Part shown: positions 12,405 through 13,236 of the stretch, piece after piece
Layout: every line of letters starts with the position of its first letter
Numbering within the stretch: position 1 is the stretch's first letter
Source: Escherichia phage vB_EcoM_HZ_ZJUN4
Sequence record: PP216085
Direction: 5' to 3' (one strand)
DNA length: 64,000 nucleotides
Program-made: the position numbers and the translations under genes
The notes under the pieces: model-generated
Database searches by the model: none
Told to the model about the DNA's origin: nothing
The model's input: the letters and a program-made list of their open reading frames with translations, nothing else

Positions 12405-12477
12405 TGGGAATTAGCCAAGTTGGTAAGGCACTGGATTTTGATTCCAGGATGCAAAGGTTCGAGTCCTTTATTCCCAG
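12405..12477 (+). tRNA. tRNA-Gln (anticodon UUG)
   Basis: Cloverleaf: acceptor TGGGAAT/ATTCCCA, anticodon loop TTTTGAT, T-arm GGTTCGAGTCC. Confidence 0.85.
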
Positions 12478-12478
12478 C

Positions 12479-12565
12479 GCGAGAATGGTCAAATTGGTAA
12501 AGGCACAGCACTTAAAATGCTGCGGAATGATTTCCTTGTGGGTTCGAGTCCCACTTCTCGCACCA
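12479..12565 (+). tRNA. tRNA-Leu (anticodon UAA), type II
   Basis: Acceptor GCGAGAA/TTCTCGC, anticodon loop CTTAAAA, long variable arm, encoded CCA. Confidence 0.85.
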
Positions 12566-12570
12566 AATTT

Positions 12571-12644
12571 GCGGATATCGTATAATGGCATTACCTCAGA
12601 CTTCCAATCTGATGATGTGAGTTCGATTCTCATTATCCGCTCCA
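12571..12644 (+). tRNA. tRNA-Gly (anticodon UCC)
   Basis: Acceptor GCGGATA/TATCCGC, anticodon loop CTTCCAA, T-arm GAGTTCGATTCTC, CCA. Confidence 0.85.
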
Positions 12645-12654
12645 ATTTAATTTA

Positions 12655-12728
12655 CTCCGTGTAGCTCAGTTTGGTAGAGCGCCTGATTTGGGATCAGGAG
12701 GTCCAAGGTTCAAATCCTTGTATGGAGA
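12655..12728 (+). tRNA. tRNA-Pro (anticodon UGG)
   Basis: D-arm GCTCAGTTTGGTAGAGC, anticodon arm CCTGA-TTTGGGA-TCAGG, T-arm CAAGGTTCAAATCCTTG. Confidence 0.8.
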
Positions 12729-12730
12729 CT

Positions 12731-12820
12731 GGAGGCGTGGCAGAGTGGTTTAATGCACCGGTCTTGAAAACCGGCAGTCGCTCCGGCGACTCATAGGTTC
12801 AAATCCTATCGCCTCCGCCA
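12731..12820 (+). tRNA. tRNA-Ser (anticodon UGA), type II
   Basis: Acceptor GGAGGCG/CGCCTCC, anticodon loop CTTGAAA, long variable arm, CCA. Confidence 0.85.
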
Positions 12821-12825
12821 GTTTT

Positions 12826-12901
12826 GCTGATTTAGCTCAGTAGGTAGAGCAACTCACTTGTAATGAGAAGGTCGGCGGTTCGATTCCGTCAATCAGCACC
12901 A
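12826..12901 (+). tRNA. tRNA-Thr (anticodon UGU)
   Basis: Acceptor GCTGATT/AATCAGC, anticodon loop CTTGTAA, T-arm GGCGGTTCGATTCCGTC, CCA. Confidence 0.85.
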
Positions 12902-12902
12902 A

Positions 12903-12977
12903 GGCCCTGTAGCTGGAAGGTTCAAGCAAGCGACTCATAATCGCCAGATGGTGGTTCAATTCCACCCAGGGCCACCA
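12903..12977 (+). tRNA. tRNA-Ile (anticodon CAU, probably lysidine-modified) or tRNA-Met
   Basis: Acceptor GGCCCTG/CAGGGCC, anticodon loop CTCATAA; T4 tRNA-Ile is known to use CAU. Confidence 0.8.
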
Positions 12978-12990
12978 AATTAAGAATTAA

Positions 12991-13077
12991 GGGGAGTTAT
13001 CCCGTAGAGGTAGCGGTGTGGACTGTAAATCCATTGTCATTGCGACTCGGGTGGTTCGACTCCATCACTCCCCACCA
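12991..13077 (+). tRNA. tRNA-Tyr-like (anticodon GUA), type II
   Basis: Acceptor GGGGAGT/ACTCCCC, anticodon arm GTGGA-CTGTAAA-TCCAT, long variable arm resembling bacterial tRNA-Tyr; D-stem only 3 bp. Confidence 0.7.
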
Positions 13078-13081
13078 ATTT

Positions 13082-13156
13082 GGATGTGTAGCTCAATGGC
13101 AGAGCGATCGCCTGTTAAGCGATTGGTTATAGGTTCGAATCCTATCACGTCCGCCA
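13082..13156 (+). tRNA. tRNA-Asn (anticodon GUU)
   Basis: Acceptor GGATGTG/CACGTCC (one G-U), anticodon arm ATCGC-CTGTTAA-GCGAT, T-arm TAGGTTCGAATCCTA, CCA. Confidence 0.8.
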
Positions 13157-13160
13157 AATC

Positions 13161-13236
13161 CGAGGCATAGCTCAGAAGGAAGAGCAAGGACCTTCTAAGT
13201 CCTAGGTCGTAGGTTCGATCCCTACTGCCTCGACCA
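13161..13236 (+). tRNA. tRNA-Arg (anticodon UCU)
   Basis: Acceptor CGAGGCA/TGCCTCG, anticodon arm AGGAC-CTTCTAA-GTCCT, T-arm GTAGGTTCGATCCCTAC, CCA. Confidence 0.8.

Follow-up and report, generated by a model that had tools for sequence, protein, structure and literature searches.

We analysed a window of 64,000 nucleotides from Escherichia phage vB_EcoM_HZ_ZJUN4 (sequence record PP216085). In the window, ARAGORN identifies ten tRNA genes on the plus strand, the first starting at position 12405 and the last ending at 13236 (Table 1). The genes are arranged in the order Gln(UUG), Leu(UAA), Gly(UCC), Pro(UGG), Ser(UGA), Thr(UGU), CAU, Tyr(GUA), Asn(GUU), Arg(UCU). The Rfam model RF00005, which is independent of ARAGORN, scores ten out of ten above its curated gathering score of 29 bits. 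Nine of them score 59-74 bits (E-values from 1e-10 to 1e-14), the best being tRNA-Asn with 74.1 bits. This confirms the ten-gene array proposed in a preliminary description of this DNA. The T4 annotation indeed contains the eight named tRNA specificities listed there, and both programs place the additional Tyr(GUA) and Asn(GUU) genes between the CAU and Arg genes, each scored as a tRNA by the covariance model.

The CAU gene is labelled Met by ARAGORN, whereas its best matches in E. coli are annotated as tRNA-Ile (full length, about 80-82% identity, a median of two places per genome), and it is closer to host genes of the ileX/ileY type than to the Met tRNAs. The earlier assignment to Ile thus holds. 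The gene most likely encodes tRNA-Ile2, a predicted reader of AUA after lysidine modification. It is identical to the copy in phage RB3 and diverged from the copy in T4 and T6. The tRNA-Arg gene represents an allele unrelated in sequence to the T4 tRNA-Arg outside the conserved elements.

Table 1. Features of the tRNA operon and its flanks in the window
Feature	Position	Strand	Evidence and remarks
Putative MotA-type middle promoter	12311..12335	+	TGCTTTA 12311-12317, 12 nt, TATTAT 12330-12335; nearly identical to T4 upstream of tRNA-Gln
tRNA-Gln (UUG)	12405..12478	+	ARAGORN; RF00005 67.4 bits; no encoded CCA; anticodon arm unlike that of T4
tRNA-Leu (UAA), class II	12479..12565	+	ARAGORN; RF00005 59.3 bits; identical to T4
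tRNA-Gly (UCC)	12571..12644	+	ARAGORN; RF00005 63.3 bits
tRNA-Pro (UGG)	12655..12729	+	ARAGORN; RF00005 66.8 bits; no encoded CCA
tRNA-Ser (UGA), class II	12731..12820	+	ARAGORN; RF00005 62.6 bits
Weaker SegB site	12796-12822		in tRNA-Ser; PMC2330249
tRNA-Thr (UGU)	12826..12901	+	ARAGORN; RF00005 72.9 bits
tRNA CAU, most likely tRNA-Ile2	12903..12977	+	ARAGORN (label Met); RF00005 59.9 bits
tRNA-Tyr (GUA), class II, phage-type	12991..13077	+	ARAGORN; RF00005 30.2 bits (35.7 alone)
tRNA-Asn (GUU)	13082..13156	+	ARAGORN; RF00005 74.1 bits; G73, encoded CCA
Preferred SegB homing-endonuclease recognition sequence, 27 bp	13132..13158	.	GGTTCGAATCCTATCACGTCCGCCAAA; spans T arm and 3' end of the Asn gene
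tRNA-Arg (UCU)	13161..13236	+	ARAGORN; RF00005 68.1 bits
116-aa ORF, equivalent to T2L 'trna.2'	13253..13603	+	ORF list; PHROG 3355 (unknown function), E 3e-54
rnaD (species 2 stable RNA) homologue	13600..13719	+	alignment to T4 rnaD
rnaC (species 1 stable RNA) homologue	13726..13864	+	gap-free alignment to T4 rnaC
Intrinsic terminator	13915..13942	+	10-bp stem, 7 G-C pairs, T run; same sequence after rnaC in T4

The array is preceded by an element that, judging by homology with T4, is probably the MotA-type middle promoter of the tRNA operon. In T4 the whole cluster is driven by a middle promoter situated just upstream (PMC2330249). A scan for sigma-70 promoters found nothing above the shuffle background, as expected, because the promoter would be of the MotA-dependent middle type. 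Downstream of tRNA-Arg lies an ORF for which a Pfam search gave no match; T2L primer #24 matches 13257-13285 within it, with one mismatch. It is followed by homologues of the stable RNA genes rnaD and rnaC, in a region (13600-13864) about 96% identical to T4, and then by an intrinsic terminator. Transcription has been described as ending after the species I RNA gene (PMC2330249). Transcription from the middle promoter upstream of tRNA-Gln would probably yield one precursor containing the ten tRNAs, the small ORF, rnaD and rnaC. The tRNAs would mature from it through host RNases and modification enzymes.

The ORF list shows nothing comparable to the 221-aa SegB within 12405-13236. With ten tRNA genes from Gln to Arg, then rnaD and rnaC, and no segB, the region is a Tequatrovirus tRNA operon of the segB-free kind (T2L/RB1/RB3-type). 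The preliminary description had placed the stable RNAs of T4 between its Ile and Arg genes; this is incorrect, as T4 has segB there, and its rnaD and rnaC lie downstream of Arg. The possibility that Tyr and Asn stand in for the stable RNAs was rejected, because the window has its own rnaD and rnaC downstream of Arg. Nor is the array unusual. Hundreds of Tequatrovirus records that annotate this tRNA set are 98-99.5% identical to the region, and Tyr and Asn genes are adjacent in 433 phage records, compared to 126 with a T4-type segB. This is the majority arrangement among T4-like coliphages, and T4 is the exception, a selfish nuclease gene having replaced its Tyr and Asn genes. The array itself was published in 2008 for T2L, RB1 and RB3 (Brok-Volchanskaya et al. 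2008, PMC2330249), and the role of tRNA-Tyr in defence was shown in 2024-2026, so that the locus carries little weight as a discovery.

The tRNA-Tyr gene is the weakest candidate by the covariance model, with a marginal score of 30.2 bits in the scan of the whole window and 35.7 bits when searched alone. It has a 7-bp acceptor stem, the D stem CCGU/GCGG, a variable arm GUC-AUUGC-GAC, A73 and an encoded CCA. The acceptor and D stems are joined by the four nucleotides UAUC instead of the canonical two-nucleotide connector (positions 8 and 9). The low score arises because RF00005 has to insert two bases at this place; the other nine tRNAs align with no such insertion. The connector is four nucleotides long in the window and four to five in relatives. 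This non-canonical junction is conserved in phage-type tRNA-Tyr, a small structural question that may merit attention. Two other foldings were considered and rejected. The D-stem register with the canonical connector (UCCC/CGGU) forms only two pairs in the window and fails in the variants with five-nucleotide connectors, and an acceptor stem shifted to bases 3-9 conflicts with the T stem and has no room for a CCA end. The register CCGU/GCGG is the only one that fits all lineages, and it agrees with the alignment produced by the covariance model itself.

Could this gene be a degenerate tRNA-like relic or a pseudogene? Besides the score close to the threshold, its minimum free energy fold as a single sequence is not a cloverleaf (z-score -0.9), and ARAGORN misses the gene entirely in relatives with the five-nucleotide connector. 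However, in the 14 distinct relatives, which come from four phage lineages, all 24 of the 24 stem pairs of the cloverleaf are standard, and compensatory double changes occur at ten of them (acceptor pairs 2, 4, 5, 6 and 7, D pair 2, anticodon pairs 2 and 3, T pairs 2 and 3). The pairs were counted by structure-based segmentation; a MAFFT alignment was excluded, as it mis-registered the D stem in the Felix and T5 rows. Standard pairing together with compensatory changes identifies the Tyr gene as a real tRNA under constraint. Identity for the bacterial tyrosyl synthetase lies in the G34-U35 of the anticodon, A73 and a long variable arm, and for the asparaginyl enzyme in the GUU anticodon and G73; both genes, as read from sequence, carry these elements. 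The T6 tRNA-Tyr, in which 85 of the 87 bases are the same, was seen by northern blot and by sequencing of tRNA fragments, and it rescues infection (PMC13096335), whereas an anticodon change in the tRNA-Tyr of the T5-like phage SP15 abolishes rescue (PMC11555353). Covariation and the published expression data thus effectively refute the pseudogene reading.

The near identity to tRNA-Tyr genes validated in other phages suggests what such a gene may do. The variable arm of tRNA-Tyr is where the PtuAB nucleases of Septu and retron-Eco7 cut, and the dosage of phage tRNA-Tyr rescues T6 and T5 (PMC13096335, PMC11555353). Septu EcB88 cuts the E. coli tRNA-Tyr at C48/A49 and that of T6 at C48 (Chihara et al. 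2026, PMC13096335). In the same study T6 was rescued from Septu by overexpression or amplification of tRNA-Tyr and became more sensitive on loss of the tRNA region, and T4, with no tRNA-Tyr, could not escape; T2 was resistant, which the authors did not tie to tRNA-Tyr (PMC13096335). For retron-Eco7, rescue was shown to be dependent on dosage and on how strong the promoter is (Azam et al. 2024, PMC11555353). By analogy with these near-identical genes, the tRNA-Tyr of the window is probably also an anti-defence supplement. When nucleases of the PtuAB type cut the variable arm of tRNA-Tyr during infection, an extra phage copy would sustain translation, the protection acting by dosage and not by resistance to cleavage.

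The ten tRNAs, if functional as predicted, Tyr and Asn included, would also add capacity for codons and amino acids that this phage of 35% GC over-uses relative to E. coli. Mechanically called phage ORFs were compared with a 50-kb E. coli sample, and all codon figures refer to that comparison. The ten most enriched codons are AGA, ATA, AAT, TCA, ACT, GGA, ACA, TCT, TAT and TTA; the array has a tRNA that reads every one of them. The most enriched amino acids are Lys (1.93-fold), Tyr (1.81-fold) and Asn (1.55-fold), the codons AAT and TAT being enriched 3.3-fold and 2.6-fold. This supports the supply part of the earlier suggestion that the phage tRNAs also serve codon usage. Each of tRNA-Tyr(GUA) and tRNA-Asn(GUU) reads its entire two-codon box, so the two address the demand for the amino acid and not a rare-codon gap. 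One possibility is that supply is all they provide, the two tRNAs covering the higher need of an AT-rich phage for Tyr (TAT) and Asn (AAT) while the tRNA pools of the host fall, with no role against defence. The coverage of all ten enriched codons and the second and third ranks of Tyr and Asn are in line with it. Nevertheless, we consider this restricted role rather unlikely. Lys is the most over-used amino acid and the array has no tRNA-Lys, so supply alone does not predict the tRNA set. Near-identical tRNA-Tyr genes gave a defence-specific benefit in experiments (PMC13096335, PMC11555353), and essentially the same gene is common to four unrelated phage lineages, which points to a common selective pressure rather than to codon tuning in each lineage. 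The tRNA region has been described as non-essential (PMC2330249), and T4 thrives without the Tyr and Asn tRNAs, so the benefit must be condition-dependent.

A candidate role for tRNA-Asn concerns the PARIS nuclease AriB. The window gene carries G39 and G41, in contrast to the U39 and C41 of E. coli asnT, and in the 3' anticodon stem of tRNA-Thr UAAUG|A replaces the UAAUC|A of E. coli thrU, with G40 instead of the host C40. These substitutions fall at or beside the U36-A-A-U39 motif and the point of cleavage, 40|41. AriB cuts the E. coli tRNAs Lys(UUU) and Thr(UGU) as well as, less efficiently, Asn(GUU) between positions 40 and 41 beside the UAAU motif; in tRNA-Lys, changing U39 to A abolishes cleavage and changing A41 to C inhibits it; and the Lys, Thr and Asn tRNAs of T5 jointly neutralise PARIS (PMC12409363). 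The change from U36-A-A-U39-C40-C41 in E. coli to U36-A-A-G39-C40-G41 in the window might make tRNA-Asn a resistant spare, destroying the U36-A-A-U39-C40|N41 context so that Asn decoding continues when the host tRNA-Asn is cut. G39 also occurs in the tRNA-Asn of T5 and of FelixO1-like phages. We regard this explanation as possible but doubtful. Asn is merely a secondary target of AriB, T4, which has no tRNA-Asn, is rescued by the T5 tRNA-Lys alone (PMC12409363), and position 39 co-varies with position 31 in the stem, so that the difference may be neutral. With no phage tRNA-Lys, a phage carrying this allele of the array should remain sensitive to PARIS whatever its tRNA-Asn does.

The preliminary description had proposed that the phage-encoded copies replenish tRNAs cut by anticodon nucleases of the colicin E5 type. 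The general idea of replenishing depleted host tRNAs is supported (for Tyr, PMC13096335 and PMC11555353; for Asn in T5, PMC12409363), but the colicin E5 part is not. The model of phage tRNAs evading nucleases relies on anticodon-loop mutations (van den Berg et al. 2023, PMC10264068). Comparison of the phage Tyr, Asn and Thr tRNAs with E. coli tyrU, asnT and thrU revealed no differences in the anticodon loops, all differences being in the stems and the variable arm. Since the loops of Tyr (CUGUAAA) and Asn (CUGUUAA) are those of E. coli, the phage tRNAs should be equally cuttable by an enzyme that reads the loop, with no escape, and only dosage could help. Colicin E5 targets the four tRNAs with GUN anticodons, including Tyr, Asn and His. 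The selection of genes fits such enzymes, which cut these queuosine-family tRNAs between positions 34 and 35, in so far as Tyr and Asn, together with His in 216 related records, make up three of the four targets, and FelixO1-like phages cluster Asn, Tyr and Asp. On the other hand, tRNA-Asp is absent from the window, the nucleases that have been documented cut at other places (PtuAB the variable arm, AriB the anticodon stem at 40/41), and a literature search found no paper that connects phage defence or T-even tRNAs with an enzyme like colicin E5. A colicin-E5-type target is therefore improbable. A broader scheme, which we consider speculative and unlikely, would treat Tyr, Asn and, in relatives, His as a mobile cassette of spare GUN-anticodon tRNAs with a mainly anti-defence function. 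According to it, a tRNA-Tyr exchanged among T4-, T5-, rV5- and FelixO1-like phages, with its junction of four to five nucleotides and enlarged variable loop, would be tuned to outcompete or outlast the host tRNA-Tyr under PtuAB, tRNA-Asn with G39 and G41 would resist AriB, and some further nuclease would target the whole GUN family.

The tRNA-Asn gene has a further feature. The 27-bp SegB site in the tRNA-Asn of T2L begins with GGTTCRANTCC and ends near CCAR; relative to the site in tRNA-Ser it has five differences, at G6, A16, G18, A26 and A27 (PMC2330249). Exactly these five differences distinguish 13132-13158 from 12796-12822 in the window, and the preferred site inside tRNA-Asn is intact and agrees with every positional constraint published in PMC2330249. 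Bearing a predicted preferred cleavage site, the Asn gene would make this phage a recipient allele. In a mixed infection with a phage of the T4 or T6 type, the block CAU-Tyr-Asn-Arg would give way to segB.

It is highly likely that these observations have a joint explanation, namely a segB-free operon of functional tRNAs in which tRNA-Tyr supplements the host pool against defence and tRNA-Asn makes the locus a recipient for SegB. Gene identity, structure, homology, codon statistics and the presence of sites were analysed here; expression, rescue from Septu and cleavage by SegB are taken from the literature on near-identical genes and would be expected to hold for this phage. Phages with this allele should tolerate immunity of the Septu and retron-Eco7 type (PtuAB) better than T4, and should lose the block to SegB-carrying relatives in mixed infections. 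Together with the expected sensitivity to PARIS, these predictions may be useful for choosing or engineering T4-like phages for therapy.

Among known operons, those of T2L, RB1 and RB3 (EMBL AJ880101, AJ884577, AJ884578) are the closest, sharing with the window all ten tRNAs and their order, the lack of segB, the preferred SegB site in tRNA-Asn, and rnaD and rnaC downstream. T2L primers #5, #6 and #12 match the window exactly, #12 falling in tRNA-Tyr. RB3, whose record AJ884578 was deposited along with the 2008 paper, has the same tRNA order followed by rnaD and rnaC, and is nearly identical to the window from CAU to Arg, apart from a 4-nt indel in the CAU-Tyr spacer. The window is RB3-like in the absence of the T2L ORF 'trna.1' from the array, and T2L-like in the presence of the 'trna.2' ORF after Arg, which RB3 does not have between Arg and rnaD.

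In T4 (NC_000866) the order is Gln-Leu-Gly-Pro-Ser-Thr-Ile-segB-Arg-rnaD-rnaC. The genes from Gln to Thr are 95-100% identical to those of the window, and T4 shares with it the upstream region, rnaD, rnaC and the terminator. However, segB stands where the window has the Tyr-Asn pair, the Ile(CAU) and Arg(UCU) genes are different alleles, no ORF separates Arg from rnaD, tRNA-Ser has no encoded CCA, and the anticodon arm of tRNA-Gln differs. In T6 (AP018814), tRNA-Tyr likewise follows the CAU tRNA, and its variable arm is that of the window, with the Septu cleavage site C48 in the shared G46-U47-C48-A49. On the other hand, segB lies exactly at the place of Asn, the Ile and Arg alleles are of the T4 type, and Pro and Ser are absent. 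A single copy of tRNA-Tyr leaves T6 partly sensitive to Septu. The locus in the window, having no segB, does not offer the tandem amplification of tRNA-Tyr by SegB known from T6.

A more distant parallel is provided by T5, whose tRNA-Tyr has variable and T arms identical to those of the window and the same extended junction between acceptor and D stems, at about 85% identity overall. T5 has 20-odd tRNAs driven by strong early promoters, among them the tRNA-Lys required to counter PARIS, whereas the window has ten in one operon with a middle promoter and no tRNA-Lys. The anti-defence tRNAs of T5 and SP15 nevertheless follow the same logic as that proposed for the window, supplementing a tRNA that has been depleted.

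Ten tRNA genes were identified by ARAGORN on the plus strand at 12405-13236, in the order Gln(UUG), Leu(UAA), Gly(UCC), Pro(UGG), Ser(UGA), Thr(UGU), CAU, Tyr(GUA), Asn(GUU), Arg(UCU); in the rest of the 64-kb window it found none. Independently of ARAGORN, the same ten exceed the gathering score of the Rfam tRNA model, nine with 59-74 bits and Tyr, with 30.2 bits, barely; the top score is that of Asn (74.1), and E-values of nine of the ten are 1e-10 to 1e-14. Thus the coordinates, gene count and anticodons of the preliminary description are right far beyond chance, and both elements for which it suggested a covariance-model check, Tyr and Asn, score as tRNAs. 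The seventh gene, with anticodon CAU, is labelled Met by ARAGORN. The E. coli genes that it matches best are annotated as tRNA-Ile, so most likely it belongs, like its T4 counterpart, to the Ile2 type that reads AUA.

Hundreds of records of Tequatrovirus (T4-like) phages match the 1-kb array region at 98-99.5% identity. A single match covers at least 80% of this query in 399 records, and the same ten tRNAs are annotated in many of them, e.g. ECO07P2, PE37 and vB_EcoM_P8. At a coverage of at least 80%, the Tyr-Asn segment was found in 433 phage records, as against 126 for the T4-type homing endonuclease gene segB. Hence among sequenced T4-like coliphages the ten-gene array is the majority state and T4 the minority state. 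In 216 related records (e.g. ECO07P2, 1858-2051), a 194-bp insertion between Asn and Arg, formed by a spacer of about 114 bp and tRNA-His(GUG), creates an 11-tRNA array with three consecutive GUN-anticodon tRNAs; no such insertion is present in the window between 13156 and 13161. The public annotation of phage ime09 omits tRNA-Tyr and places the tRNAs on the wrong strand.

The array is a T2L/RB3-type tRNA operon and as such is already known. The tRNA regions of T2L, RB1 and RB3 were sequenced by Brok-Volchanskaya et al. 2008; they lack segB and contain tRNA-Met(CAU), Tyr, Asn and Arg in its stead (PMC2330249). The RB3 record deposited by these authors, AJ884578, has all ten tRNAs of the window and, after them, rnaD and rnaC (T4 stable RNAs species 2 and species 1), and is near-identical to the window from CAU to Arg. 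T2L primers #5, #6 and #12 (PMC2330249) match the window exactly, whereas the match of primer #24, at 13257-13285, is broken by one mismatch. When T4 is crossed with T2L, a stretch of about 1250 bp that includes Met, Tyr, Asn and Arg is almost completely replaced, and the preferred 27-bp site of SegB lies wholly within tRNA-Asn (PMC2330249). According to the same text, the first bases of the site are GGTTCRANTCC, CCAR lies near its end, and the positions that set it apart from the Ser site are G6, A16, G18, A26 and A27. The 27-mer placed from these constraints and its Ser counterpart (12796-12822) differ at exactly those five positions (6, 16, 18, 26, 27).

Features of the tRNA region (positions in the window)
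Feature	Position	Strand	Sequence	Basis or location
tRNA-Tyr(GUA)	12991-13077	+		ARAGORN, Rfam
tRNA-Asn(GUU)	13082-13156	+		ARAGORN, Rfam
SegB preferred 27-bp site	13132-13158		GGTTCGAATCCTATCACGTCCGCCAAA	placed from constraints in the text of PMC2330249
116-aa ORF (T2L 'trna.2')	13253-13603	+		between tRNA-Arg and rnaD
rnaD (species 2) homologue	13600-13719			aligns to T4 rnaD
rnaC (species 1) homologue	13726-13864			aligns to T4 rnaC
Strong intrinsic terminator	13915-13942			after rnaC; same as in T4

The order in the T4 reference record is Gln-Leu-Gly-Pro-Ser-Thr-Ile-segB-Arg-rnaD-rnaC. The preliminary description placed Tyr and Asn where T4 carries its stable RNAs. However, the Ile/Arg interval of T4 holds segB, a GIY-YIG homing endonuclease gene, and both stable RNAs lie downstream of Arg; since they are also present in the window (about 96% identical to those of T4), Tyr and Asn are no replacement for them. 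The genes from Gln through Thr are 95-100% identical in T4 and the window, divergence begins at about base 12 of the CAU tRNA, and at Arg the two phages carry different alleles. T6 is intermediate, with T4-type Ile, Tyr, segB exactly at the place of Asn in the window, and T4-type Arg. In the T6 record AP018814 segB is named 'serine recombinase'.

The window (12431-12447) and T4 differ in the anticodon arm of Gln, with CUGGA-UUUUGAU-UCCAG in the former and UAGCA-CUUUGAC-UGCUA in the latter. The stem is completely swapped via compensatory changes, loop positions 32 and 38 are C in T4 and U in the window, and the remainder of the gene is identical; this allele may be under selection at the anticodon arm. 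The Ser gene encodes CCA in the window (12817-12822), whereas T4 does not (CGCCAG versus CG-TAA). Gln and Pro of the window have no encoded CCA, both abutting the next gene (12476-12480, 12726-12731), and thus need the host CCA-adding enzyme. Such a need has already been described for T4 dimeric precursors.

Neither stable RNA homologue matches an Rfam family; a T arm resembling that of tRNAs, GGTTCGAATCC, is present in rnaC near 13842. The match of primer #24 identifies the 116-aa ORF as 'trna.2' of T2L. The ORF ends within the first bases of rnaD, its stop codon forming the overlap. PHROG gave a match to family 3355 (unknown function; E 3e-54) and Pfam gave none; in T4 and RB3 this position is free of ORFs. 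A second TGCTTTA (MotA-box-like) motif, located shortly before rnaD in the 3' end of the ORF (13585-13591) and beside a weak sigma-70-like match (13573-13601), could serve as an internal promoter for rnaD and rnaC.

Codon usage of 69 window ORFs (15,716 codons, 34.9% GC) was compared with that of 41 ORFs from a 50-kb E. coli K-12 sample. The ten most phage-enriched codons, AGA (5.7x), ATA (4.1x), AAT (3.3x), TCA (3.3x), ACT, GGA, ACA, TCT, TAT (2.6x) and TTA, are all readable by the ten phage tRNAs, and the most enriched amino acids are Lys (1.93x), Tyr (1.81x) and Asn (1.55x). Thus the classical supply explanation, correctly anticipated as a codon-usage role, fits Tyr and Asn no less well than the eight tRNA genes of T4, with the caveats that tRNA-Tyr and tRNA-Asn each read an entire two-codon box and that Lys is the most over-used (8.7% versus 4.5% in E. 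coli), yet the phage lacks tRNA-Lys. PrrC targets tRNA-Lys, which is also the main target of PARIS.

It had also been proposed that the Tyr and Asn genes replenish host tRNAs cleaved by nucleases of the colicin E5 type. Three of the four tRNAs with GUN anticodons occur here (Tyr, Asn) or in relatives (His), which makes the association suggestive. Against it, the anticodon loops of phage and host do not differ, tRNA-Asp is absent, and our literature search found no paper tying an E5-like nuclease to T-even phage tRNAs, so that a counter to this nuclease is improbable. The concept of replenishment itself is right, being experimentally established for close relatives, but the enzymes are those of Septu and retron-Eco7. 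On T6 infection, Septu EcB88 (nuclease PtuAB) cuts the variable arm of E. coli tRNA-Tyr at C48/A49, and T6 tRNA-Tyr is also cut, at C48 (PMC13096335). The window tRNA-Tyr has the same G46-U47-C48-A49 as T6. T6 is rescued by tRNA-Tyr overexpression or SegB-driven tandem amplification and is sensitised by loss of its tRNA region; T4, without tRNA-Tyr, does not escape; T2 is resistant, with no tie to its tRNA-Tyr drawn in that study (PMC13096335). Rescue from retron-Eco7 by tRNA-Tyr of T5 or SP15 requires a functional anticodon (PMC11555353). Since it also depends on promoter strength, and E. coli tRNA-Tyr under a phage promoter likewise rescues (PMC11555353), the effect is one of dosage, not resistance.

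For Asn, the relevant nuclease is AriB of PARIS, which in E. coli targets tRNA-Lys(UUU), Thr(UGU) and, less efficiently, Asn(GUU), cutting between positions 40 and 41 next to the motif U36-A-A-U39; mutations at 39 and 41 of tRNA-Lys stop cleavage (PMC12409363). E. coli asnT has U36-A-A-U39-C40-C41, whereas the window Asn has U36-A-A-G39-C40-G41, with G39 common to the Asn genes of T5 and FelixO1-like phages. Resistance of the window tRNA-Asn to AriB is plausible on these substitutions. PARIS is neutralised by T5 Lys, Thr and Asn jointly (PMC12409363). The benefit of a resistant Asn would be limited, because the phage has no tRNA-Lys and T5 tRNA-Lys by itself rescues T4 (PMC12409363).

The low score of Tyr was traced to two bases ('uc') inserted by the covariance model between position 9 and the D stem. 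Members of the Tyr family were gathered by BLAST and by scanning IMG/VR for an exact pattern. The scan yielded 47 contigs in four size classes that match FelixO1-, T5-, rV5- and T4-like phages, and pairs were counted by structure-based segmentation of 14 distinct sequences. These have a 7-bp acceptor stem, a 4-5-nt connector (UAUC, UAUU, UAAUU or UAUUU) instead of the canonical two nucleotides, a D stem CCGU/GCGG (CUGU/GCAG in T5-likes), an invariant anticodon loop CUGUAAA, a variable arm GUC-AUUGN-GAC, a T arm, A73 and encoded CCA. The variable-arm loop has 5 nt, compared with 3 in E. coli tyrU. All 24 stem pairs are standard in all 14 sequences, with double compensatory changes at 10 pairs, which rules out a relic; the window Tyr gene is a constrained tRNA. 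The T6 copy of tRNA-Tyr differs from it at 2 of 87 positions; both northern blotting and tRNA-fragment sequencing detect this copy, which has biological activity (PMC13096335).

The non-canonical connector depresses covariance-model scores, and ARAGORN run on the variants with a 5-nt connector missed the gene entirely; therefore tRNA-Tyr is probably under-annotated in some Klebsiella and Enterobacter T4-like phages. In the T5 record AY587007, the annotated tRNA features are about 68 nt off the ARAGORN positions. Four unrelated lineages of coliphages share a tRNA-Tyr gene that is nearly the same in each, the window gene being 85-96% identical to those of T5, Vequintavirus 'nom' and Felixounavirus VpaE1, with identical variable and T arms. 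These genes are much closer to one another than to E. coli tyrU, and their similarity suggests that a single phage tRNA-Tyr lineage has spread horizontally. The feature of most interest that remains is structural: the long connector, supported by compensatory changes, is conserved across T4-, T5-, rV5- and FelixO1-like phages.
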